Part shown: piece by piece, positions 6,082-56,891 of the stretch | Layout of the letters: every line of letters begins with the position of its first letter | Numbering within the stretch: the stretch's first letter is position 1 | NCBI GenBank assembly: GCA_937952265.1 | Contig: CALFYW010000016.1 | Span: 13,086 to 77,085, forward strand | Origin: an uncultured bacterium | Lineage (GTDB): Bacteria; Patescibacteriota; Minisyncoccia; Phycocordibacterales; GCA-2401445 | Direction: 5' to 3' | Length of the DNA stretch: 64,000 nucleotides | The notes under the pieces: model-generated | The model's input: the letters and a program-made list of their open reading frames with translations, nothing else | Told to the model about the DNA's origin: nothing | Database searches by the model: none | Program-made: the position numbers and the translations under genes

Positions 6082-7407
6082 ATGCGTATGTTTGAGAAGC
6101 TGCGCCATATTGCTACTGATCCTTATCGTGGTGTGCGTGATTTCTATCCCGAAGACCAGGCAGTACATAACTATCTGCTTCACACCATGCGGACCAGTAT
6201 GGAGCGTTTTGGATACGAAGAGTATCATGCTTCAATTTTGGAACCAGCAGAACTCTATCGAGCGAAGACGAGTGAGGAGATCGTGAGCGAACAGACCTAT
6301 ACCTTTACTGACCGGGGCAACAGAGAGGTTACCCTGCGTCCTGAAATGACGCCCACCACCGCACGAATGGTTTCCGCCCGAAGAAGAGACCTCGCATTTC
6401 CCCTTCGATGGTTTTCAGTTGCAAACGTATTCCGATATGAACGGCCTCAGCGCGGACGTCTTCGAGAACACTGGCAACTCAACGCTGATTTTTTCGGACT
6501 TGAAGGGATACACGCAGAAACCGAAATTATCCATACCGCATCCTCAATACTTAATACATTAGGTCTTAAAGAAACTGACTTCTCAATACAAATCAATAAT
6601 CGTGCTATTCTCCGAGAACTCCTTATCGAAGGTATGGGAATATCAGAAGCATCTTTCTCAACCATCACACGTATTCTGGATAAAAGAGAAAAAGTCCATC
6701 CTCAAAATTTCAAGGCGGCTATTTTTGATGCTTTTGGAAAAGAGACCGCTCAAGCTGAACGATTCCTTTCTTTTCTTGATACGAAAGATCTTCATGGAAT
6801 TATTGCTACATTTTCAAACCATGAAGCACTAAAAGAGAAGTTGCGGGATACCGAGGAGCTTATTCACAACCTTTCACAGAAAGGGGTTACGAACGTGAAT
6901 TTTAATCGAGGACTTGCGCGTGGTTTTGACTACTATACGGGTATGATTTTTGAGATTTTTGATACTGATACAAAAAACAACCGGTCTCTTGCTGGGGGTG
7001 GCCGTTACGATAACCTCATTAAAACATTCAGCGGGCATGATATTCCTGCCGTTGGATTTGGTATGGGAGACGTTACTATAGCCCAAGCACTTGAATCACG
7101 GGGGCTTTTACCTCCTTATACCTCACAAACCACCCTTTATCTCTGTATCGCCCAAACTGGGGCATTGCCTTACGCAGAGAAGGTTGCAGCGATGTTGCGA
7201 GACGCGCATATTAATACCGCAATTGACTTCACCGGAAAGAAAATTGGTGACCAGATACGTTACGCGGTTCGACACCATATTCCATATATCGCCTGTATTG
7301 GAGACCAGGAAGTTTCTTCAAAAAAGATAGTAGTGAAAAACCTCAAAGAAGAATCCGAGAAAACAGTCCCTGAAGACGAACTCATTACGTATTTAACACA
7401 TGAATGA
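6082..7407 (+). CDS. hisS: Histidyl-tRNA synthetase
   Basis: Class II aaRS motifs; N-terminus and the GGGRYD motif typical of HisRS. Confidence 0.9.
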   Translation: MRMFEKLRHIATDPYRGVRDFYPEDQAVHNYLLHTMRTSMERFGYEEYHASILEPAELYRAKTSEEIVSEQTYTFTDRGNREVTLRPEMTPTTARMVSARRRDLAFPLRWFSVANVFRYERPQRGRLREHWQLNADFFGLEGIHAETEIIHTASSILNTLGLKETDFSIQINNRAILRELLIEGMGISEASFSTITRILDKREKVHPQNFKAAIFDAFGKETAQAERFLSFLDTKDLHGIIATFSNHEALKEKLRDTEELIHNLSQKGVTNVNFNRGLARGFDYYTGMIFEIFDTDTKNNRSLAGGGRYDNLIKTFSGHDIPAVGFGMGDVTIAQALESRGLLPPYTSQTTLYLCIAQTGALPYAEKVAAMLRDAHINTAIDFTGKKIGDQIRYAVRHHIPYIACIGDQEVSSKKIVVKNLKEESEKTVPEDELITYLTHE

Positions 7408-7990: not shown

Positions 7991-9046
7991 CTAAATCCCC
8001 TCCTTGCGCAATTTTTCAATAAGCTCGCGCGCTTGTTTTGAGGTCTTGCGTGGTAGTTCAATGGAAACCGTAATCAAAAGATCACCTCGTTTTCCATGTT
8101 CATAAGGAACACCCTTACCACGGACACGCAATATCTCATCAAAGGAAACTCCTGCTGGTATCTTCACCTCAATAGTTTTTCCTTCAAGAGTTTCAACTAA
8201 ATAGACTCCCCCGAGTAGCGCGTCCGTAAGCTTAACCTTTAAATCCAGAAGTAGATTTGTGCCTTCTTTTTTGAAAGCACGATGAGGTTTAACTTGGACC
8301 TTAATGTATAAATCTCCCGAAACACCACCAGCAATAGCTTCGCCACTACCAGAGAGACGTATCATTTCTCCATTTTCGATACCTGATGGAATCTTAACAC
8401 GAATTTCTTCTTCACGACGATAGACTCCTGCTCCTTTACAAGTCGCGCATTTTTCTTTAGGAGTCTTACCGCTCCCGCGACAAAGTTCACAGACGCGCTC
8501 AGTGCTTAAGGTTCCAAAAATTGAACGTCTTGTTTCATGGATGCGCCCTTTCCCATTACATCGGGTACACGTCGTGAACTCTGCCCCTTTTTTAGCCCCA
8601 CTTCCCTCACACACCTCACATTGAGCTGTTTTAGCAAGAAGGATCTTTCGTTCAACTCCAAATACCGCTTCTTCAAAGGTAAGCTCAATACCAATTGAAA
8701 TATCACGACCTCGTTTTGTACGAGCACGAGCTCCACCAAAAAAATCACTAAAGATATCTCCGAGGTCAAAATCTTCTGCGGAAAACTGGGAAAAATCAAA
8801 CCCACCGAATCCTCCACCTGAAGGACCCGAACCTCCCCCAAAGACGCGACCATACGAGTCATACTCTGCGCGTTTTTTCTCGTCGGACAAGATGCTATAC
8901 GCCTCACTCACCTCTTTAAATTTCAACGGATCACCACCTTTTTTATCAGGGTGATATTTGTGGGCAAGTTTTCGAAATGCTTTCTTTATCTCATCTTTAG
9001 TCGCATTCTTCTCTATTCCTAAGATTTCGTAATAACTTTTATTCAT
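7991..9046 (-). CDS. dnaJ: Chaperone DnaJ
   Basis: J-domain with HPD motif, Gly-rich linker, four CxxCxGxG repeats. Confidence 0.92.
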
Positions 9047-9048
9047 AG

Positions 9049-10950
9049 CTATGATGTAGTTGAGTCATTGGATTCATCCTCTTTCTTCTTTTCTTCATAA
9101 TCGACATCTCTCGCTTTCTGTTCATCTGCTTTTCCTTCTTCCTTTTTTCCTTCTTGACTCATAGAGGCGCCGATTTTCTGTAGTGCTTGAGAAAGAGCCT
9201 CGGTTGATTTCTTTATCGTGTCAGTATCCTCCCCATCTTTTACCGCCTTCAACGCCCCAATAGCGTCTTCTACTTGTTTTTTAATATCTGCCCCAACCTT
9301 ATCTCCGTTATCTCGAAGTGCTTTCTCCGAGGTATAAATGAGCTGTTCTGCGATATTCCTGCTTTCAGCGAGCGCTTTCTTCTTTTCATCCTCTGCGCTG
9401 TGAACTTCTGCGTCTTTCTGCATTCGTTCGATGTCATCGCTCGAGAGGCCAGAGCTTGCTTCAATCCGAATCGACTGCTCTTTTCCAGTTGTTTTATCTT
9501 TTGCGCTCACTTGTAAAATACCATTCGCATCAACATCAAAAGTCACTTCAACTTGTGGTGTGCCTCTTGGTGCAGGAGGAATTCCATCAAGGATAAACTT
9601 TCCGAGGCTTTTATTATCTCCCGCCATGGCACGTTCTCCTTGTACCACGTGTATCTCTACTGAGGTTTGATTGTCGGAAGCAGTAGAAAATACCTGGGTT
9701 CGAGAACTTGGAACCGTCGTATTCTTCTCAATTAACTTAGTGGCAACTCCTCCCATTGTTTCAATGCCGAGTGAGAGTGGAATAACATCAAGCAGAAGGA
9801 TATCCTTTACATCACCTGAGATAACACCCCCCTGAATCGCCGCGCCAAGCGCAACAACTTCATCAGGGTTAATTGACCGATTTGGTTCTTTCCCAAAGAG
9901 CGCCTTCACCGCCTCAATAATTTTCGGCATGCGTGTCTGACCTCCCACCAAAATTACTTCGTCAATATCTTTAATCTCAAATGGGGATGCTTCAATAGCG
10001 CGTTTCGTGATACTAATTGCCCGATCAATATACTCTTCCGCAAGCTCCTCTAAGGTAGAACGTCTCATGGTGATCAAAAGGTGGCGCGGACCACTTGCAT
10101 CAGAAGTGATGAAGGGAATATTGATCTCTGTTTCAGTAGTCGTTGAAAGTTCAAGTTTTGCTTTTTCCGCTGCTTCATCAAGTCGCTGTAATGCCAAGGG
10201 GTCATTCCGCACATCAATACCACTATCGCGCTTGAACTCGTTCGCGATCCAGTCTACAATCTTTCGATCAATATCGCGTCCTCCAAGATGGCTATCACCG
10301 TCAGTTGATTTTACTTCAACCACATCATCACCCACTTCAAGGACGGAGATATCAAAGGTACCTCCCCCAAAGTCGAATACTGCGATTTGTTCGTTTTTCT
10401 TTTTGTTAAATCCGTATGCGAGTGCCGCAGCAGTAGGTTCATTGATAATTCGCTTTACTTCTAATCCCGCGATCTTTCCCGCATCTTTTGTTGCTTGGCG
10501 TTGCGAATCATTAAAATATGCAGGTACAGTAATAATTGCTTCCGTGATCTTTTCTCCCAATTTTGCCTCTGCGTCCTGCTTCATTTTTTGAAGGATCATG
10601 GCTGATACCTCCTCAGGGCGATACTCTTTATTTTCTAGCACCACCGAGACCCCACCGTTTGGTGATTTTTTAATTTCATAAGGAACTGAAGATTTATCTT
10701 TGGTAACTCCCTCATCATCAAATGTGTGCCCGATAAAACGTTTGATACCATACACCGTGTTTTTCGGATTGGTAACTGCTTGCCGTTTTGCCAAAAGACC
10801 AACAAGACGTTCTCCTGTCTTAGAAATTGCGACAATAGAAGGAGTGGTTCGAGCACCCTCCGCGTTTTCAATAATACAGGGTTCCCCACCTTCAATAATT
10901 GCCATTGCGGAATTAGTAGTTCCAAGATCAATACCTAGTATTTTTGCCAT
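9049..10950 (-). CDS. dnaK: Chaperone DnaK (Hsp70)
   Basis: IDLGTTNS and DFGGGTFD Hsp70 signatures. 633 aa. Confidence 0.95.
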
Positions 10951-34203: not shown

Positions 34204-34881
34204 TTAAAACCAGAAAATAGGTTTTTTTCCGTGTTGCGCGAGGTATTCATTGGTCTGACTGAAATGTTTATTGCCAAAAAACCCATTGTGTGCCGAAAAA
34301 GGAGACGGATGGGATGATTCTAGGATACAGTGCTTACCTGGATCAATAAGCGCCCTTTTAGCACGCGCGTAATTTCCCCAGAGCAAAAAAACAATATTTT
34401 CTTTCTTTTCCGAAATTGCCTGTATCACCGTGTCCGTAAAATTCTCCCATCCTTTATGTTGGTGTGAGCCCGCGACATGGGCACGTACGGTAAGCGTTGC
34501 GTTCAAAAGAAGTACTCCTTGCCGTGCCCAATGCTCTAAGTTACCGTGTTTGGGAATTTCTCCGCCTACATCACTCTGTATCTCCTTATAGATATTTTGC
34601 AGAGAAGGAGGCACCTGTATGTTTTCAGGTACGGAAAAACAGAGTCCGTGTGCTTGCCCTACACCATGATATGGATCCTGTCCCAAAATGACGACGCGCA
34701 CCTGGTCAAACGGGCATAGAGAAAACGCATGAAATACAAACTGAGGTGGTGGATATACCTTCGTGGACAAAAACTCACTCCGTACAAAGGCGCGTAATTC
34801 TTTGAAGTAGTCCTTTTCAAATTCATCAGAAAGCACGGCTTTCCACGATGGTTCAATAGCAACCTCCATGAAAAATATCAT
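34204..34881 (-). CDS. ung: Uracil-DNA glycosylase (family 1)
   Basis: ILGQDPYHG, GLCFSV and HPSPFSA motifs. Confidence 0.85.
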   Translation of the reverse strand: MIFFMEVAIEPSWKAVLSDEFEKDYFKELRAFVRSEFLSTKVYPPPQFVFHAFSLCPFDQVRVVILGQDPYHGVGQAHGLCFSVPENIQVPPSLQNIYKEIQSDVGGEIPKHGNLEHWARQGVLLLNATLTVRAHVAGSHQHKGWENFTDTVIQAISEKKENIVFLLWGNYARAKRALIDPGKHCILESSHPSPFSAHNGFFGNKHFSQTNEYLAQHGKKPIFWF

Positions 34882-34980
34882 AGCACATGAGTATATTCCG
34901 TTGTTTAATACCCATCAATCTTTTTTCAAATTCAGAATTGGTGGTGTTTGTTTGAAAAAGTTAGAACTCATTTCCGAGAA

Positions 34981-35247
34981 GGCAACGACTGACTCGCCCC
35001 GCCGCCCGCCTCCGCTAACGCTCCGGCGGCAACCTTGCAGAAACATTTTCTTTACAATTTTCTTTTTTGCGCGCGCCCCAGAAATTTTTTCAATTAAGGA
35101 AAAGAAAATGTTTCTGCTCGGTTCCGCCCGTGAAGTTTCCGGGCGGAGCGGCGGGGCTTCCACGCTCGGACGGCTCGGCATTCCTCCCCCAGACCCCCTC
35201 CTGCCGAGCCGTCCTCGCTTCGGGGCGGGAATTTTTTGCGGGGCTAC
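34981..35247. repeat. GC-rich palindromic repeat, copy A; inverted relative to copy B
   Basis: About 75-85% identical by eye to the reverse complement of 39483-39812. Its end (cgcttcggggcgggaattttttgcggggctac) overlaps the stop of the 35244 gene. Confidence 0.7.
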
Positions 35248-36068
35248 TTATCCTGATTTGCCTCCTCATTCGGTTTATATTCTATTTTAAGTGGTAAATC
35301 AGTCATTGCATAGTGAACAAATTGCTGTCCGAGGTCTGTAAGTTCATACTTTTCCTCACGGTCAAATGCTGATTTCATCTCACGAGAAGCAACATAACCT
35401 TTTGGTCTTTTTTGTGGAGTATCTTTCAAGAACCGTCCATCATAAGTTTTTTGTCTGTGTTGGCGTATAATCCCTCCTGTGCTTAAATCTCGGAACAGCA
35501 ATTTGTACAAATCGGCATCTGCCGAATCTTCGCGCACGGTTTCTTTTCCAATTTTTTCCCACACTTCACCTCGCGAAATACCGCCACTATTGTAAATTGC
35601 TCCGATGACATGGAAATGTAGTTCGGAATAATCTTTTAACCAGTCGATAAATAGTCGCACCACATCATCACTTGTTAGGTCTGAGGCGGCGGCATTCGCG
35701 AGAATATTTCTGATGTACATCCTCTTTTCGTCGCTTTCTGCTCCCGACCATTCTCGAAATGTCTTTTTGAGTAAGGATTGATACTCCTTGCTTTCAATCC
35801 TTCTGGCAATTTCTTCATCGTGAATATCGAGCCGCGCCATTATTTCGAGAATGGTCTTTTCTTTCTCACGAATTTCGTCTTCAAGCATTTTAATCCAATG
35901 CTTGAAAAAATTATTAACCTTCTCTTGTTCTTTTTCTGACCATGCTCCCGCCGCCGCTGAAAACAAGCCACCAGCAAATGGGACGGCTCCCCCGACAACT
36001 TGCAAAGCACCCCGAACGATTTTCGGGGCACCGCCTTCCTTTGGTAATTTTTTATCTTCTTCCGCCAT
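35244..36068 (-). CDS. Hypothetical protein (island gene 1)
   Basis: 274 aa, Gly/Ala-rich N-terminus, no known motif. A 4-nt gap separates it from the upstream gene. Confidence 0.45.
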   Translation of the reverse strand: MAEEDKKLPKEGGAPKIVRGALQVVGGAVPFAGGLFSAAAGAWSEKEQEKVNNFFKHWIKMLEDEIREKEKTILEIMARLDIHDEEIARRIESKEYQSLLKKTFREWSGAESDEKRMYIRNILANAAASDLTSDDVVRLFIDWLKDYSELHFHVIGAIYNSGGISRGEVWEKIGKETVREDSADADLYKLLFRDLSTGGIIRQHRQKTYDGRFLKDTPQKRPKGYVASREMKSAFDREEKYELTDLGQQFVHYAMTDLPLKIEYKPNEEANQDK

Positions 36069-36072
36069 AGTT

Positions 36073-37002
36073 CTATTGCAAGCTATCGATATATATTGTT
36101 ACTTCATCATCAAATTCTCTCACCAAATCCATTGAGTAAATCACACCTAAACTTTCTGCTTCGTCAGAACTTACCAACGATGGAACACCAATCATACAGC
36201 CATGTCTATCAACAGCTAATCCGCCAGAGTTTCCATGACTAATTTTTGCAGAAGTTACTATCAAACCATCACCGGGGAAACTACTAACCACACCATCGGT
36301 TACTGTTAGAGAATATCCTCCACTGATTGCCGGGTATCCGAAAATACGGATTGGCTCACCAAGTTGTACATATTCATTTGTGCAACTTGTTGTATCATCA
36401 AAAGTTGGAAATTTACGCGGATATACCCCCGCATATTCTCCAGTTTCTTCATCGTAGTAAGCTGCGTAAATTTCCATGTACGCCAAATCGTAATTATCGC
36501 TAATGGTTGGCAATACAATCGGATTAGCTAAATAGATACCGTCTGGCTGTCCAGTTACAGGATCGGGCAGGACAACTAGACATCCCGTTTCATCTACGTG
36601 GAGATAAACCTCGTCCTGGGGAATTATGTGCGAGTTTGTGAGAATTAAGCCATCCTCGCTTATTATCGTGCCAGAACCGCCACTTGATTCATCTTCCGAC
36701 TCTGTGCTTGGGCAGAAGATATTTACAACGGACGCCGCGATTGAATTTTGATTGTATGACGTCGTGTGCGTTGCTGGATAATCGGTCGTGCTGTAGTCAG
36801 TTGAAGAATCATCGTAAACACCAATAACAATAAAGAAAGCTAATACTCCGAGTATAATTAAAATCGCTTTCAAATGATCTTTAATCCATTGAGAAAATCG
36901 TTCTCTAAAAATTGCGAACCGACTAAATTTTAATTCATGCCCACAGTTCTTGCAGAATCTCGTACCCAGTTTTATTTTTTGTCCGCAATTTTTACAAAAC
37001 AT
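36073..37002 (-). CDS. Zinc-ribbon / TM / trypsin-like serine protease
   Basis: MFCKNCGQKIKLGTRFCKNCG zinc ribbon, one TM helix, and the triad context LTNSHI ... D ... GNSGG. Confidence 0.6.
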   Translation of the reverse strand: MFCKNCGQKIKLGTRFCKNCGHELKFSRFAIFRERFSQWIKDHLKAILIILGVLAFFIVIGVYDDSSTDYSTTDYPATHTTSYNQNSIAASVVNIFCPSTESEDESSGGSGTIISEDGLILTNSHIIPQDEVYLHVDETGCLVVLPDPVTGQPDGIYLANPIVLPTISDNYDLAYMEIYAAYYDEETGEYAGVYPRKFPTFDDTTSCTNEYVQLGEPIRIFGYPAISGGYSLTVTDGVVSSFPGDGLIVTSAKISHGNSGGLAVDRHGCMIGVPSLVSSDEAESLGVIYSMDLVREFDDEVTIYIDSLQ

Positions 37003-37003
37003 G

Positions 37004-37246
37004 TTATGTTAATTTACTTCCGCAATGAGTGCAGAATTTTTGCCCTTCCTCAACAGGAGAACCGCAAGACCAACAGAAACTGCCTTTTGCATCATTATCG
37101 CCAACATCTTTCGTCCCTCCAGTAACTTCTGCAAGTTCTTTTTTCTTTGCAATAAGTTCGTTCTTAGTTTTTTCATCTATTCGTCCTTTTACTTGAAATA
37201 GGAAATTAAGAAAATCAGGAAGAACAACAACGTTCATTACATCCAT
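37004..37246 (-). CDS. Small protein with C-terminal zinc ribbon
   Basis: CWSCGSPVEEGQKFCTHCG at the C-terminus. Start ambiguous; set to MDVMNV to limit overlap. Confidence 0.4.
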   Translation of the reverse strand: MDVMNVVVLPDFLNFLFQVKGRIDEKTKNELIAKKKELAEVTGGTKDVGDNDAKGSFCWSCGSPVEEGQKFCTHCGSKLT

Positions 37247-37793
37247 TGAATATGCAGAAAATTCCTTGTATTTCTTTTTTTTGGTCATCGCGAAATACAT
37301 GCAATGCACCCTGTTGTAGAATTGAATTATAGTATTGATCCCAGGGCAAGAGCTCTGGGTCTCGCCAAAATCTCTTTTTTAGTAATCCCTGCGGAGTAAT
37401 AGTTAGTGAGTCAATCTTTAATTCTTTATCTTTTGCAAATTTTAGAAGTAAATTGATTACTACGTGCGGTTTTATAAGATTTTCTATAACCGCATAAAAT
37501 TTTGCAAAAAGTTCATCTTTCTCTTTCTCGGTCTTTCCTTTTCCAATAAAAAATGTTCCAGCAGAGAATTCTATTTTATGAGTCTTCCCATTTGCTTGAA
37601 TCTTTATATTGTACTTACTCGTTGAACCAGCAGGTACAAAGTAGACAGTAGTGGTTGTTCTTGTTAGCAGATAAGATATGCCCTCAATATCGGTATAGTT
37701 TATTCGTTCGCCTTTATATACAAGGTAGTGTTCATAAAACAAAAGAGTCTGACTCCTTGAAACATTTATAGCGATGATTGGTTCTTGTGCCAT
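37215..37793 (-). CDS. Hypothetical protein (island gene 4)
   Basis: Its start ATG lies 1 nt after the stop of the upstream gene (taacatg). No motif. Confidence 0.4.
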   Translation of the reverse strand: MAQEPIIAINVSRSQTLLFYEHYLVYKGERINYTDIEGISYLLTRTTTTVYFVPAGSTSKYNIKIQANGKTHKIEFSAGTFFIGKGKTEKEKDELFAKFYAVIENLIKPHVVINLLLKFAKDKELKIDSLTITPQGLLKKRFWRDPELLPWDQYYNSILQQGALHVFRDDQKKEIQGIFCIFNGCNERCCSS

Positions 37794-37794
37794 G

Positions 37795-38478
37795 TTATTT
37801 ACTTTCGTTGCGTAAGTTATTTTCAGCAACTCCAAGGAGATATCCATGAATAAGTTGCTGAATTAAGCTATCTTTTATTCCGTCGACAACTGCCTTAGGT
37901 AGTTCCTTCAATGTTTGGTTTGACTCAAATAGTCCGTCTCCAATTTGGTCGTTAACAGCATTGAGAACAGTTAGTACATCATCGGGTATGGAAATAATTT
38001 TATTTGTATGATTCCTGAAAACACGCTTCCATTCTTCTGCCAAATCTTCATTGTCTTTAATCTCAACTTTTTTAATTGTTACTCCTTTCAAAATCTGTTC
38101 TGCAATAAAAACTTGATAAGCGTTGTGTACAAATGAAGTTAGATAGGATTTCACAGCTTCTATTGTTTTGTACGGCTGTTTATCAAGATCAATTTTATGA
38201 TTTTCTGTTAAGGTGTTTAGCGAATTATGGCTAAATCGCCCAATCATATCCCAAACTGCTTCCGAAGTTAGTTCATTGTATTTTTTTAGTTCATTACCCT
38301 CCGCACGTGCTATTTCTAAAAATTTTTTCCAAAGAATGTTGGCTGATTCTAACTTTGGATCATTTTCTTCTGGATTCTTTTCCGCTGACTCTTGCCCAGA
38401 CTTTTTCAAGCTGTGACCGCAACTGTCACAGAAATTCGCTTGGTCCGATATTTTTGTTCCACAATTTGGGCAAAACAT
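37795..38478 (-). CDS. N-terminal zinc-ribbon protein with unknown soluble domain
   Basis: MFCPNCGTKISDQANFCDSCG. Confidence 0.5.
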   Translation of the reverse strand: MFCPNCGTKISDQANFCDSCGHSLKKSGQESAEKNPEENDPKLESANILWKKFLEIARAEGNELKKYNELTSEAVWDMIGRFSHNSLNTLTENHKIDLDKQPYKTIEAVKSYLTSFVHNAYQVFIAEQILKGVTIKKVEIKDNEDLAEEWKRVFRNHTNKIISIPDDVLTVLNAVNDQIGDGLFESNQTLKELPKAVVDGIKDSLIQQLIHGYLLGVAENNLRNESK

Positions 38479-38487
38479 ATAATCATT

Positions 38488-39120
38488 TTATGGCATAAAT
38501 GTGCCAATAAGTACTAATAGAAACCAAATGACTCCAATTACTATTAAAACCACCTCACCACCAGAAAAACCTGGAGTCAGCACATCATCGCCCTTTATTT
38601 TCTCATTATTATAATTGATTGCTTTTTGAATCGACATCAATGGAATAAAGGTTGCGACTGCAATAATCAGCCAGAGAAGATTAAAACCAACGTCATACGA
38701 TTCAACCCTACTTAGACCATTTCCTATCACGAGGAGTAAAATGTAAGCAGTTGCCAACCACCCCGGCGAATAAGACTCTTTGTAGTCGTGACTTTTAGCA
38801 GATTCTAATACTTTTTTAAACAAACTATGACAGAAAAAAATAGCAAAGATAGCTCTCCAAAACGGTGATATTTTTTGCCCTTCTGCACTTTTAACTGCTT
38901 GCCAGTTTTTGTAAAACCAATAAATTTCATAAATACCTAAAGTAAGAATCGAAAACAAGGCGAGTCGTTTAGGAGATATAGCAAAATACTCAATATCAGT
39001 TATTACGTTTTCCTCGCTTTTCGAATTAGCAGAAGGCTGATTTTCTGCCAACTTTGCTCCACACTTCTGGCAGAATTTTGAACCTTCATCTATTTTTGAT
39101 CCACAGCTTGTACAAAACAT
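38488..39120 (-). CDS. N-terminal zinc-ribbon plus DUF4234-like membrane protein
   Basis: MFCTSCGSKIDEGSKFCQKCG, then LTLGIYEIYWFYKNW (DUF4234-like) and three TM helices. Confidence 0.5.
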   Translation of the reverse strand: MFCTSCGSKIDEGSKFCQKCGAKLAENQPSANSKSEENVITDIEYFAISPKRLALFSILTLGIYEIYWFYKNWQAVKSAEGQKISPFWRAIFAIFFCHSLFKKVLESAKSHDYKESYSPGWLATAYILLLVIGNGLSRVESYDVGFNLLWLIIAVATFIPLMSIQKAINYNNEKIKGDDVLTPGFSGGEVVLIVIGVIWFLLVLIGTFMP

Positions 39121-39125
39121 AATAT

Positions 39126-39332
39126 TTAATTTATTAACTCATCAACGGAAATATCCAACGCCTTGGCGACCTTTCGCAAGGTTTCAAGCGTAGGATTTTT
39201 ATTTTCCCCTGATTCCATTTTAATAATCGTATTATTGGCGACATCGGCCAATCTCGCCAATCGCTCTTGTGAAAGGCCTTTTTGCTTTCGCAACTTTTCC
39301 ACATTCTTTGATAAATTTTCGTTCTTTGACAT
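39126..39332 (-). CDS. XRE-family HTH transcriptional regulator
   Basis: LRKQKGLSQERLARLADVANNTIIKMESGE; start set at MSKNEN. Confidence 0.7.
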   Translation of the reverse strand: MSKNENLSKNVEKLRKQKGLSQERLARLADVANNTIIKMESGENKNPTLETLRKVAKALDISVDELIN

Positions 39333-39348
39333 ATCTTTAGTGTAGTAG

Positions 39349-39395
39349 TAACATTGAAATAGAGTATGCAAATCTTTTCAACTATTTCAATGTTA
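39349..39395. promoter_or_regulatory. Perfect 14-bp inverted repeat upstream of the XRE gene (candidate operator)
   Basis: taacattgaaatag-N19-ctatttcaatgtta, 17-63 nt upstream of the XRE ATG. Confidence 0.5.
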
Positions 39396-39482
39396 CATCT
39401 AAAATATAAAAAAGTCAAAACTAAAGGGAGTTCCCTGTTGCCCGCGCACGGGAGTGGTGGGGCAAGGGCAACTATAAATCCG

Positions 39483-39812
39483 GTAGCCCCACAAAAAATT
39501 TCCGCCCCGAAGCGAGGGCGTGGCGGAAGGAGGGGGTTGGGGGGAGGAATTCCGCCACGCCCGAGCGAAATCAGAAAGAGGCCGCACCCGCCGCCCTGAT
39601 CGTCAGAGCAGAGCACCACAGAAAAGTTTTGTTTTCCTTTTAGAAGAAAAAATCGGTCGCGCGCAAAAGGAAAATCGTAAACAAAACTTTTCTGTGGTGG
39701 GGCGAGAGTCAGCGAGCGGCGGGAATCTTGGCGGTGGATTTCAGAAACCCTTGGCATTTCCTTGCGGAAATGCCTGCCGAAGCGAGGGACGAAGCCCCGA
39801 GCGAGGCAACTA
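39483..39812. repeat. GC-rich palindromic repeat, copy B (longer; extra 5' module)
   Basis: gtagccccacaaaaaatttccgccccgaagcgagg ... matches the reverse complement of copy A. Internal 20-bp inverted repeat ccacagaaaagttttgtttt / aaaacaaaacttttctgtgg. Confidence 0.7.
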
Positions 39813-39820
39813 ATCAACTT

Positions 39821-39894
39821 TGGTGGACCTAGCGAGAATCGAACTCGCGCCTCTACAATGCGAATGTAGCGTCGTACCACTAGACTATAGGCCC
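39821..39894 (-). tRNA. tRNA-Ala (CGC)
   Basis: Hand-folded cloverleaf: G3:U70, anticodon loop TTCGCAT, T-loop TTCGATT, encoded CCA. Confidence 0.8.
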
Positions 39895-39910
39895 TAAAAC
39901 GGTATATCAA

Positions 39911-39981
39911 TCGGGGTGCCGGGAATTGAACCCGGTCTACACGCACCCGAAGCGTGCGTACTACCGGTATACTACACCCCG
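39911..39981 (-). tRNA. tRNA-Pro (CGG)
   Basis: C1:G72 and A73 (bacterial Pro identity), anticodon loop TTCGGGT, T-loop TTCAATT, no encoded CCA. Confidence 0.75.
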
Positions 39982-40104
39982 CTTAACGTAACTCCTAAAA
40001 ATCCAACTCTACTGTAGCAGAAATTGCGACAAAAGATACTACTCTTTTTTTAATTAAGGCCGCTCGAAGTATTTTGCTACGTTTCAAATAGCGGTCCCAT
40101 TTTG

Positions 40105-40175
40105 TGGACTCACGGGGGATCGCACCCCGGACTCGTCCATGCCATGGACGCGTATTACTACTATACTATGAGCCC
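40105..40175 (-). tRNA. tRNA-Ala (GGC)
   Basis: G3:U70, anticodon loop ATGGCAT, A73, no encoded CCA. Confidence 0.75.
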
Positions 40176-45962: not shown

Positions 45963-46038
45963 GGGCCCGTAGCTTAGTTGGTAGAGCGCTGCATTTGCAA
46001 TGCAGAGGTCAGGGGTTCGACTCCCCTCGGGTCCACCA
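45963..46038 (+). tRNA. tRNA-Ala (TGC)
   Basis: gggcccgtagcttag ... anticodon loop TTTGCAA, G3:U70, encoded CCA. Confidence 0.85.
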
Positions 46039-46116
46039 AAGTTGATTAGTTTGATAAATGAGTCAAAATTTTTTTCAATAGATATACCAAAACAATATAA
46101 GGTATAATCAACCTCA

Positions 46117-56177: not shown

Positions 56178-56891
56178 ATGCCTGAAAAAATATGTGAGGA
56201 AAAATACAACGTTCCCGCACACGAACTACCCGTTAAGCCCCTTACCATCGAAGAGCTGGAGAAAAGTTCTTCTGAACGAGTCTCTCTTATTGCTGATGAA
56301 TTTAAGAGAGGATTTGAATTCATTAAAAAATACCCTCGATCAGTAACCTTTTTTGGATCATCCCGCTTCAATGAAGAAAATCCTTTTTACCAGGACGCGC
56401 GCGCGTTGAGTAAACTCATTGTTACCTCCCTCAACTATGCCATTGTGACTGGCGGGGGCCCGGGAATCATGGAAGCGGCAAATCGCGGGGCTATGGACGC
56501 AGATGGCCACTCAGTGGGTCTTTCAATTAAGCTCCCGCGGGAACAGAGAACAAACGCTTACTTAAGTGATTTCATCGACTTCTATTATTTTTTCAGCAGA
56601 AAAGTGACTCTTTCATTTTCCGCTGAGGCATACATCTTCTATCCTGGAGGTGTTGGGACACTTGATGAGTTTTTTGAAATATTCACACTCGTACAAACGC
56701 ATAAAATTGCATGCTGCGTACCAATGATCCTTGTTGGAGAAGCCTTTTGGAAACCGCTCGACACTTTTATCCGAGAAACACTCTACGAAAAGATGCATAC
56801 GATCAGTAAAGAGGATCCTGACTACTATCTTATTACGGATGATCACAAAAAGATTGTTGAAACCATCAGAAAAGCGCCACTTCGAATATAG
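56178..56891 (+). CDS. LOG-family (TIGR00730) nucleotide-binding protein
   Basis: GGGPGIMEA and PGGVGTLDEFFE motifs. Confidence 0.8.
   Translation: MPEKICEEKYNVPAHELPVKPLTIEELEKSSSERVSLIADEFKRGFEFIKKYPRSVTFFGSSRFNEENPFYQDARALSKLIVTSLNYAIVTGGGPGIMEAANRGAMDADGHSVGLSIKLPREQRTNAYLSDFIDFYYFFSRKVTLSFSAEAYIFYPGGVGTLDEFFEIFTLVQTHKIACCVPMILVGEAFWKPLDTFIRETLYEKMHTISKEDPDYYLITDDHKKIVETIRKAPLRI

Follow-up and report, generated by a model that had tools for sequence, protein, structure and literature searches.

The stretch of DNA analysed here (the window) comprises 64,000 nucleotides of contig CALFYW010000016.1, from an uncultured member of the Patescibacteria (GenBank assembly GCA_937952265.1). Between a tRNA cluster and the gene ung it carries a block of ~4.2 kb, a candidate accessory islet, in which seven minus-strand open reading frames (ORFs) span positions 35244-39371. 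The coordinates and the tight packing (gaps of 1-9 nt, or overlaps) that an initial annotation had given for these ORFs were reproduced, while its count of seven genes was not: the true number is six, one gene being frameshifted and read as two ORFs.

The first gene of the block, G1 (39126-39332; this and all following genes are on the minus strand), encodes a 68-amino acid (aa) XRE/HTH_3 regulator (Pfam HTH_3, 5.7e-17). G2 (38488-39120) joins an N-terminal Zn-ribbon to a body with multiple transmembrane segments (TMs), and G3 (37795-38478) joins an N-terminal Zn-ribbon to a soluble domain of ~200 aa without a family match. The frameshifted gene, G4/5 (37004-37793), specifies a soluble protein of 262 aa that ends in a Zn-ribbon; the ORFs as read are G4 (37215-37793, or to 37847) and G5 (37004-37309). 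G6 (36073-37002) encodes a Zn-ribbon, one TM and a trypsin-fold protease, and G7 (35244-36068) a protein of 274 aa with a predicted winged-helix C-terminus. The Pfam scan bore out the earlier calls of HTH_3, Zn_Ribbon_1 and Trypsin_2 domains; DUF4234 (PF14018) in G2 stayed under its cut-off (22.9 vs. 25.3 bits, with 28 residues covered). No Pfam match was obtained for G4 or G7.

The composition of the block is split in two. G2, G3 and G4 have the lowest guanine-plus-cytosine (GC) content of the 59 ORFs in the window (0.35-0.36, z -2.8 to -3.4), while relative to the same ORFs G6 is slightly low (z -1.1) and G7 is average (z -0.2). The AT-richness initially ascribed to the whole block is thus a property of G1-G5 and not of G6 and G7. 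Three tRNA genes, tRNA-Ala(cgc), tRNA-Pro(cgg) and tRNA-Ala(ggc) (39821-40175, minus strand), adjoin the block directly upstream, as had been described, and there is no recombinase within or adjoining the block (an integrase had already been noted as absent). A GC-rich structured repeat lies on both sides; self-comparison and folding place its left copy at 35038-35247 (plus strand) and the right, inverted copy at 39487-39694 (minus strand).

Upstream of G1 there is a perfect 15-bp inverted repeat, GTAACATTGAAATAG (39348-39362) and CTATTTCAATGTTAC (39382-39396), that overlaps promoter-like hexamers at 39418-39390 and 39390-39363 (39348-39418 in all, minus strand). This repeat is the probable XRE operator, and a palindrome over a promoter is the layout expected of an autoregulated XRE operator. 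The XRE repressor would probably bind the palindrome over its own promoter and thereby gate one polycistronic transcript.

The Zn-ribbon/protease module

Four of the proteins have a Pfam Zn_Ribbon_1 domain, which is N-terminal in G2, G3 and G6 and C-terminal in G5. All four copies of the strict motif FCxxCG...FCxxCG in the window fall within the block. By hydropathy analysis, G2 has several TMs, G6 has a single one (residues 44-62), and G3, G4, G5 and G7 have none. G6 contains a Trypsin_2 domain (Pfam, 2.1e-14) with TNSH and GNSGG motifs visible in the sequence; its predicted topology is a cytoplasmic Zn-ribbon, one TM and an extracytoplasmic protease of the HtrA/DegS kind. Comparisons of a G4/5 profile and of G3 with PDB sequences yielded no match.

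G4/5 has just seven relatives among 5.8 billion clusters. At four loci that encode such relatives (L084-L087), a G6-like Zn-ribbon-TM-Trypsin_2 gene directly follows the G4/5 relative (44-67% identity), and in L084 and L085 a G3 homologue precedes it (50-57% identity). The conserved unit, as judged from neighbourhoods in a few metagenomic contigs, is therefore G3-G4/5-G6, and it is very rare. G7 was not seen after the protease in the L084-L088 contigs wherever that position is visible (L087 has a DUF6804 gene there). In L088 (118-2458), a membrane protease with a Zn-ribbon and a Peptidase_M48 domain replaces the trypsin-like protease beside the G4/5-family gene; the same tag on another protease hints that G4/5 is a protease partner. 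Among the G4/5 relatives the Zn-ribbon moves between the N- and the C-terminus, and because its terminus varies in this way it behaves as a portable tag.

The shared cytoplasmic Zn-ribbon would most likely act as a common docking tag, by which G2 and G6 in the membrane would recruit the soluble proteins G3 and G4/5. Such docking could couple a cytoplasmic signal to extracytoplasmic proteolysis by the outward-facing, membrane-anchored G6.

Each full-length relative of G4/5 (P0122, P0123, P0125-P0127) is a single protein, 258-293 aa long, with a Zn-ribbon. In the window, G4 and G5 are separated by one surplus A in the A8 run at 37275-37282; with one A taken out of the run, a 262-aa ORF results that can be aligned with the relatives from end to end. 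Because the relatives are single proteins and the deletion restores a full-length ORF, we treat G4 and G5 as one gene. The identical frameshift is present in three other assemblies of the same organism. The extra base may reflect a pseudogene that has become fixed or a sequencing error in the homopolymer, or transcriptional slippage may rescue the site. A second lesion was found in assembly ERZ869942 (locus L002), where six substitutions over a 70-nt stretch introduce a stop codon into G2 (window 38986-39056; L002 634-704) and the remaining 4.6-4.7 kb are identical to the window; this cluster could be a tract of local recombination, the result of targeted mutation or noise from low coverage (~5.9). 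The frameshift and the G2 stop suggest that the module is decaying, unless slippage at the A-run rescues G4/5.

The G7 family and its genomic contexts

A search with G7 returned 2663 matches, the top 120 of which are all at least 71% identical; counting one genome per species, G7 is present in 263 species at 60-77% identity. Hosts include Patescibacteria, Gammaproteobacteria (Vibrio salinus, Shewanella abyssi, Pseudomonas), Nitrosomonas europaea, Geobacter and Alphaproteobacteria, and further Bacteroidota, Verrucomicrobiota, Nitrospirota, Atribacterota and Pseudonocardiaceae (Actinomycetota). At 50% clustering, the wider family comprises 615 representatives, and it includes a second large subfamily. 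Synonymous sites are saturated (third-position identity 33-52%) while nonsynonymous divergence is low (dN 0.12-0.31), so the similarity among G7 proteins reflects long purifying selection rather than recent transfer. A mobile gene under such strong constraint probably touches something universal.

No model in Pfam, NCBIfam, PHROG or PADLOC matches G7. The Abi_alpha family (PF14337) does not match G7 itself and matches only two of 43 divergent relatives, weakly (best 2.4e-4); PADLOC run on 43 family members gave nothing meaningful. tblastn searches of PLSDB and INPHARED had no match, and IMG/VR had 17 in 2.9 million contigs. An AlphaFold2 model from a 70-sequence alignment has a predicted local distance difference test score (pLDDT) of 68.7 overall and of ~90 for residues 141-255 (a model from a shallow alignment, at pLDDT 49.5, was unusable). 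The architecture consists of a Gly/Ala-rich N-terminal segment, long helices and a predicted C-terminal winged helix; Foldseek comparisons with PDB and BFVD gave nothing at E<=0.001 and no full-length match. An HUH-type motif (HFH) was ruled out, as the second His is not conserved, and so was a toxin-antitoxin pair of the XRE gene and G7, as the two genes do not lie side by side and G7 stands by itself in cassettes.

Across 80 species-level loci, G1-G6 were never found beside G7, and no neighbour family is common to the loci. The neighbours are co-directional all the same (63 same-strand and 9 opposite-strand genes upstream, 53 and 22 downstream). These properties suggest that G7 is an independent, promoterless single-gene traveller of a winged-helix family, parked at the end of operons. 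From its domain architecture we would place its function, at low confidence, most likely in self-sufficient nucleic-acid binding selected on mobile DNA. Such binding could serve defence or exclusion, or else regulation; the two are tentative assignments of about equal, minor weight.

Part of the G7 family travels in integrons. At many proteobacterial G7 loci the stop codon lies inside ...YTAAC..., followed by a hairpin and, 50-110 nt on, by ...GTTRRRY; attC sites in this subfamily were called by pattern and folding, and a conservative automated attC test was positive for 5 of the 80 loci against a background of 0.38%. In a Stenotrophomonas locus (L173), family member P0358 is the first cassette beside an integron integrase (IntI; TIGR02249, 487 bits, cut-off 265), and the co-directional array, which diverges from IntI, contains canonical attC sites at ~8852-8955 and 9343-9407; both attC and IntI thus place a member of the family in an integron cassette at this locus. 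No attC (R'' RYYYAAC ... R' GTTRRRY) lies 3' of G7 in the window, where the flank is the GC-rich repeat. Phage-defence genes are known to occur in integron cassettes (bioRxiv 10.1101/2024.07.02.601719), which serves here as background and is no evidence on G7.

Two observations concern the 3' side of G7. A near-identical 75-nt attC-like site, CCCTAACAAAGCCAGCCAGAGGG...GGCGTT, follows G7 in a Cellvibrionaceae metagenome-assembled genome (L051, ~6930-7010) and in Shewanella (L056, ~10800-10880), which suggests transfer of the whole cassette between genera. Patescibacteria copies have TAGCC(N)CCG in common after the G7 stop (window 35236-35246; L010 2906-2918; L009/L012; L004), a motif with which the inverted repeats, too, end on their inner side; at the same position TAGCCCTAAC, the attC R'' site, stands in many of the proteobacterial copies. 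The two motifs may be a shared remnant of a cassette junction.

Structured repeats and G7 islands in Patescibacteria

The presence of an inverted GC-rich repeat on both sides of the block, as initially annotated, was confirmed. Its best-conserved part is an 85-nt inverted repeat (35163-35247 and 39483-39567, 84% complementary), and similarity reaches ~210 nt at 73-74% identity across the two copies. A 26-mer core occurs exactly twice in 64 kb, with 0 copies expected. The repeats are the sole intergenic stretches of >=68% GC in the window, in a genome of 43% GC (one further stretch of >=68% GC lies at 56449-56510).

Each copy is a stack of hairpins. The left one comprises a large AT-stem palindrome (~35024-35130), a hairpin that we call hairpin A (35169-35213, loop ATTCCTCCCCCAGACCCCCTCCT) and a terminator-like hairpin with a T-run that is directed into the block (35209-35238, plus strand). 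The right one comprises hairpin A (39517-39561), a terminator-like hairpin with a T-run, likewise directed into the block, that in addition terminates the tRNA cluster (39520-39494, minus strand), and an AT-stem palindrome (39614-39699). Separately, at their 3' ends (39808-39844 and 46015-46051), tRNA-Ala(cgc) and tRNA-Ala(tgc) have in common a trailer of ~13 nt past the tRNA (AAGTTGATTAGTT).

Hairpin A has a loop of 21-23 nt that is conserved in sequence, ATTCCTCCCC(C)AGACCCC(C)TCCT, and stems that vary between copies and genomes yet remain complementary. Covariation, computed on the trimmed hairpins of five sequences, shows compensatory changes at 7 of 11 pairs, and 90.6% of the cells are paired, vs. 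63% in shuffles and 35-44% in slid controls. A covariance-model scan of 1.33 Mb of loci found the hairpin in the window (twice), L010 (twice), L046 and L013 only, in every case beside a G7 block. In Rfam, only the tRNAs pass the gathering threshold, and the repeats give only generic hairpin (miRNA precursor) matches far under the cut-off. A retron or an IS605- or TnpB-type noncoding RNA was ruled out as the identity of the repeats, since Pfam detects no reverse transcriptase (RT), TnpA or TnpB. Long ORFs that run through the repeats (39134-39946, minus strand; 34868-35290, plus strand) encode similar peptides, GIPPP(D/N)PLLP.RPRFGA.IFCGAT, and are inverted-repeat artefacts rather than genes. 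The two inverted structured repeats may mark the borders of an islet, which the inward-facing terminators would insulate.

In seven further loci (L004, L005, L006, L010, L012, L013 and L172), as in the window, G7 ends an operon that is begun by an XRE gene of 70-80 aa. The cargo between the two differs (MFS transporter; D12 methylase with a DUF234-like protein; type I/IIG restriction-modification (RM) genes; AAA_33; Zn-ribbon proteins, of which L006 and L013 encode one to three). Inverted repeats bracket the G7 blocks of L004 (254 nt, 95% identity), L005 (94 nt, 100%), L010 (193 nt, 100%) and L012 (75 nt, 93%), and in an Atribacterota locus the G7 block is flanked by two copies of a palindromic element. 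The only sequence that L010 and L046 have in common is the G7 ORF with its 200-nt 3' repeat (87.8% over 1032 nt); as far as the two sequences tell, the ORF and the repeat move as one unit.

Two of the loci combine a G7 block with a tRNA gene and a recombinase. In L004 (3711-19928), from a Parcubacteria genome, a tRNA-Gln gene is followed by a large serine recombinase, a repeat, a first module that runs from the XRE gene to G7 and Trypsin_2, a second repeat, a second RM module and a third repeat. The repeat is a structured element of 254 nt, the first copy being inverted relative to the other two; module 1 consists of XRE, a D12 methylase, a DUF234-like protein, G7 and Trypsin_2, and module 2 of a D12 methylase, a 261-aa protein, Vsr and a 1076-aa protein. 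L004 has the look of a modular defence island. In L169, tRNA-Met and tRNA-Asp are followed by G7, a large serine recombinase and prophage-like genes. No duplication of the target site was apparent in L010, in L004 or in the window, and Pfam finds no transposase domain in any gene of the block.

Origin of the block and comparison with known systems

On balance, we read the block as a mosaic, horizontally acquired accessory islet between the tRNA cluster and ung. The initial annotation's view of an accessory block, in part compositionally foreign, framed by repeats and adjoining tRNA genes, is upheld, with relatives of G7 now found in recombinase/tRNA islands (L004, L169). The structure is mosaic: it holds a rare Zn-ribbon module, a G7 that is independent and constrained, the recurring frame of an XRE gene and G7, and the bordering repeats. 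The islet would be made up of layers, an XRE repressor, a rare low-GC Zn-ribbon/protease module and an unrelated G7, and is probably what remains, in a state of decay, of an integrative island beside a tRNA like L004, from which the recombinase has since been lost. Decay is suggested because the repeats are only 74-84% identical (93-100% elsewhere), one gene is frameshifted and G2 has a stop codon in one population.

Several points weigh against this reading. The window has neither a recombinase nor direct (att-type) repeats. No empty site was found, the relatives recovered by a metagenome scan with Ung being at most 71% identical and without synteny, and for this reason we infer the insertion. 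G6 and G7 are genome-like in GC. Zn-ribbon proteins also lie between the XRE gene and G7 in L013 and L006, and a Trypsin_2 gene abuts G7 in L004, so that a functional tie of G7 to the Zn-ribbon/protease genes is possible. The mechanisms proposed here for the tag and for G7 are both drawn from domain architecture.

The best-placed alternative, which we consider a real if minor possibility, is that the repeats are two paralogous genes for a small structured RNA (sRNA) with a C-rich, anti-Shine-Dalgarno-like loop and its own terminator, flanking the block by chance. They are GC-rich islands in a genome of 43% GC, their stems covary around a conserved loop with two CCUCC motifs, and a hairpin with a T-run closes each copy on the C-rich strand. 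Against sRNA genes stand the orientation of the repeats relative to the operon, which differs between the window and L010/L013, the lack of an Rfam match, the confinement of the hairpin in 1.33 Mb of loci to the flanks of G7 blocks, the complete identity of the L010 copies over 193 nt and the co-transfer of the element with G7 in L010/L046. The two roles, as sRNA genes and as islet boundaries, are compatible.

It is unlikely that all six or seven genes form one anti-phage or abortive-infection system, with the XRE protein as controller, the Zn-ribbon/protease proteins as sensor and effector and G7 as a DNA-binding partner. Such a system would account for the XRE-led operon, for the recurrence of Zn-ribbon cargo between XRE and G7 (L013, L006), for the Trypsin_2 gene beside G7 in L004 and a protease-like match upstream of G7 in L078, and for the position of G7 at the end of RM operons (L172, L004) or after HsdR (L071/L073). 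The initial annotation, too, had suggested that the seven genes could be one system, and this part of it is not supported: G1-G6 are missing beside G7 in 80 of 80 loci, G7 has no conserved neighbour and is solitary in integron cassettes, G3-G4/5-G6 is found elsewhere without G7, composition is divided between the parts and one gene is frameshifted. PADLOC (PADLOC-DB 2.0), which had been suggested as a check, detects no system in the block and returns only generic XRE matches and one protease-domain match, with nothing for G2, G3, G4 or G7; the latter match, of RT-Protease_XI to G6, covers profile positions 326-492 (the protease part) only, and Pfam finds no RT. A defence role of the block is possible.

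More doubtful still is a native, vertically inherited envelope-protease operon with ordinary terminators as repeats, which would fit the genome-like GC of G6 and G7, the missing integrase and the termination of the tRNA cluster by the right repeat, and which is opposed by the lowest GC of the window in G2-G4, the seven G4/5 relatives in 5.8 billion clusters, the sporadic, cross-phylum occurrence of G7 and the long inverted repeat copies found nowhere else in 64 kb. A phase-variation switch, in which the long inverted repeats that bracket the entire operon, with their inward terminators, make the segment invertible, is very improbable given that there is no invertase nearby, that the arms are only 74-84% alike and that three independent assemblies have the same orientation and identical sequence.

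With the mosaic islet, the picture of a single seven-gene defence operon gives way to a dissected one with three testable objects. The first is a large family, G7, that lacks a Pfam, NCBIfam, PHROG or PADLOC model and is carried on integron cassettes and in Patescibacteria islets. The second is a rare protease module with one Zn-ribbon tag common to soluble and membrane partners, and the third a covarying hairpin with a C-rich loop that borders accessory blocks in genomes whose mobile-element biology is almost unknown.

Islands of tRNA genes and large serine recombinases resemble the block in that it adjoins tRNAs, is in part of foreign composition and belongs to blocks with variable cargo, L004 and L169 having a tRNA, a recombinase and a G7 block; the window differs in having no recombinase or direct att repeats and in its own inverted, diverged repeats. 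Like transposons and MITEs (miniature inverted-repeat transposable elements), the blocks have terminal inverted repeats (85-210 nt at 74-84% in the window, 93-100% in L004, L005, L010 and L012), but the block genes include no transposase and no target-site duplication was seen.

The resemblance to integron cassettes lies in G7 as a promoterless single ORF with a folded 3' site, co-directional with unrelated neighbours and sporadic across phyla, in the family member that is cassette 1 beside IntI in Stenotrophomonas, and in the attC-like sites after G7 in Vibrio, Shewanella and others. In contrast, the window and other Patescibacteria G7 loci lack IntI and RYYYAAC/GTTRRRY and have inverted structured repeats of 75-254 nt instead. 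A speculative reading, to which we give little weight, is that G7 with its structured 3' element and the XRE...G7 blocks of Patescibacteria are units of an undescribed hairpin-guided cassette system, integron-like but without IntI and attC, in which the hairpins would serve as recombination or recognition sites and G7 possibly as their binding factor.

With RM and defence operons led by C-proteins or XRE regulators, the block shares a small HTH_3 gene in first position and a palindrome overlapping the promoter, and L172 has the same layout with RM genes and then G7; here, however, the cargo is Zn-ribbon/protease genes, with no nuclease or methylase. G6 is similar to HtrA, DegS and DegQ (S1C) in its trypsin-fold domain and GNSGG serine motif, and its best PDB matches are DegQ, HtrA and DegS (E ~1e-7); unlike them, it has no PDZ domain in the Pfam scan, carries an N-terminal cytoplasmic Zn-ribbon and a single TM, and scores 48 bits against the NCBIfam model degP_htrA_DO (cut-off 416). 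G7 differs from PadR/MarR-type winged-helix regulators in ~140 extra N-terminal residues (Gly/Ala-rich, long helices) and in having no structural match. For two components, the G7 proteins and the hairpin repeat with its conserved loop, there is no described family. Each ingredient of the block (tRNA-side islet, XRE-led operon, HtrA-like protease, integron cassette) has a known analogue, and it is the combination that is new.

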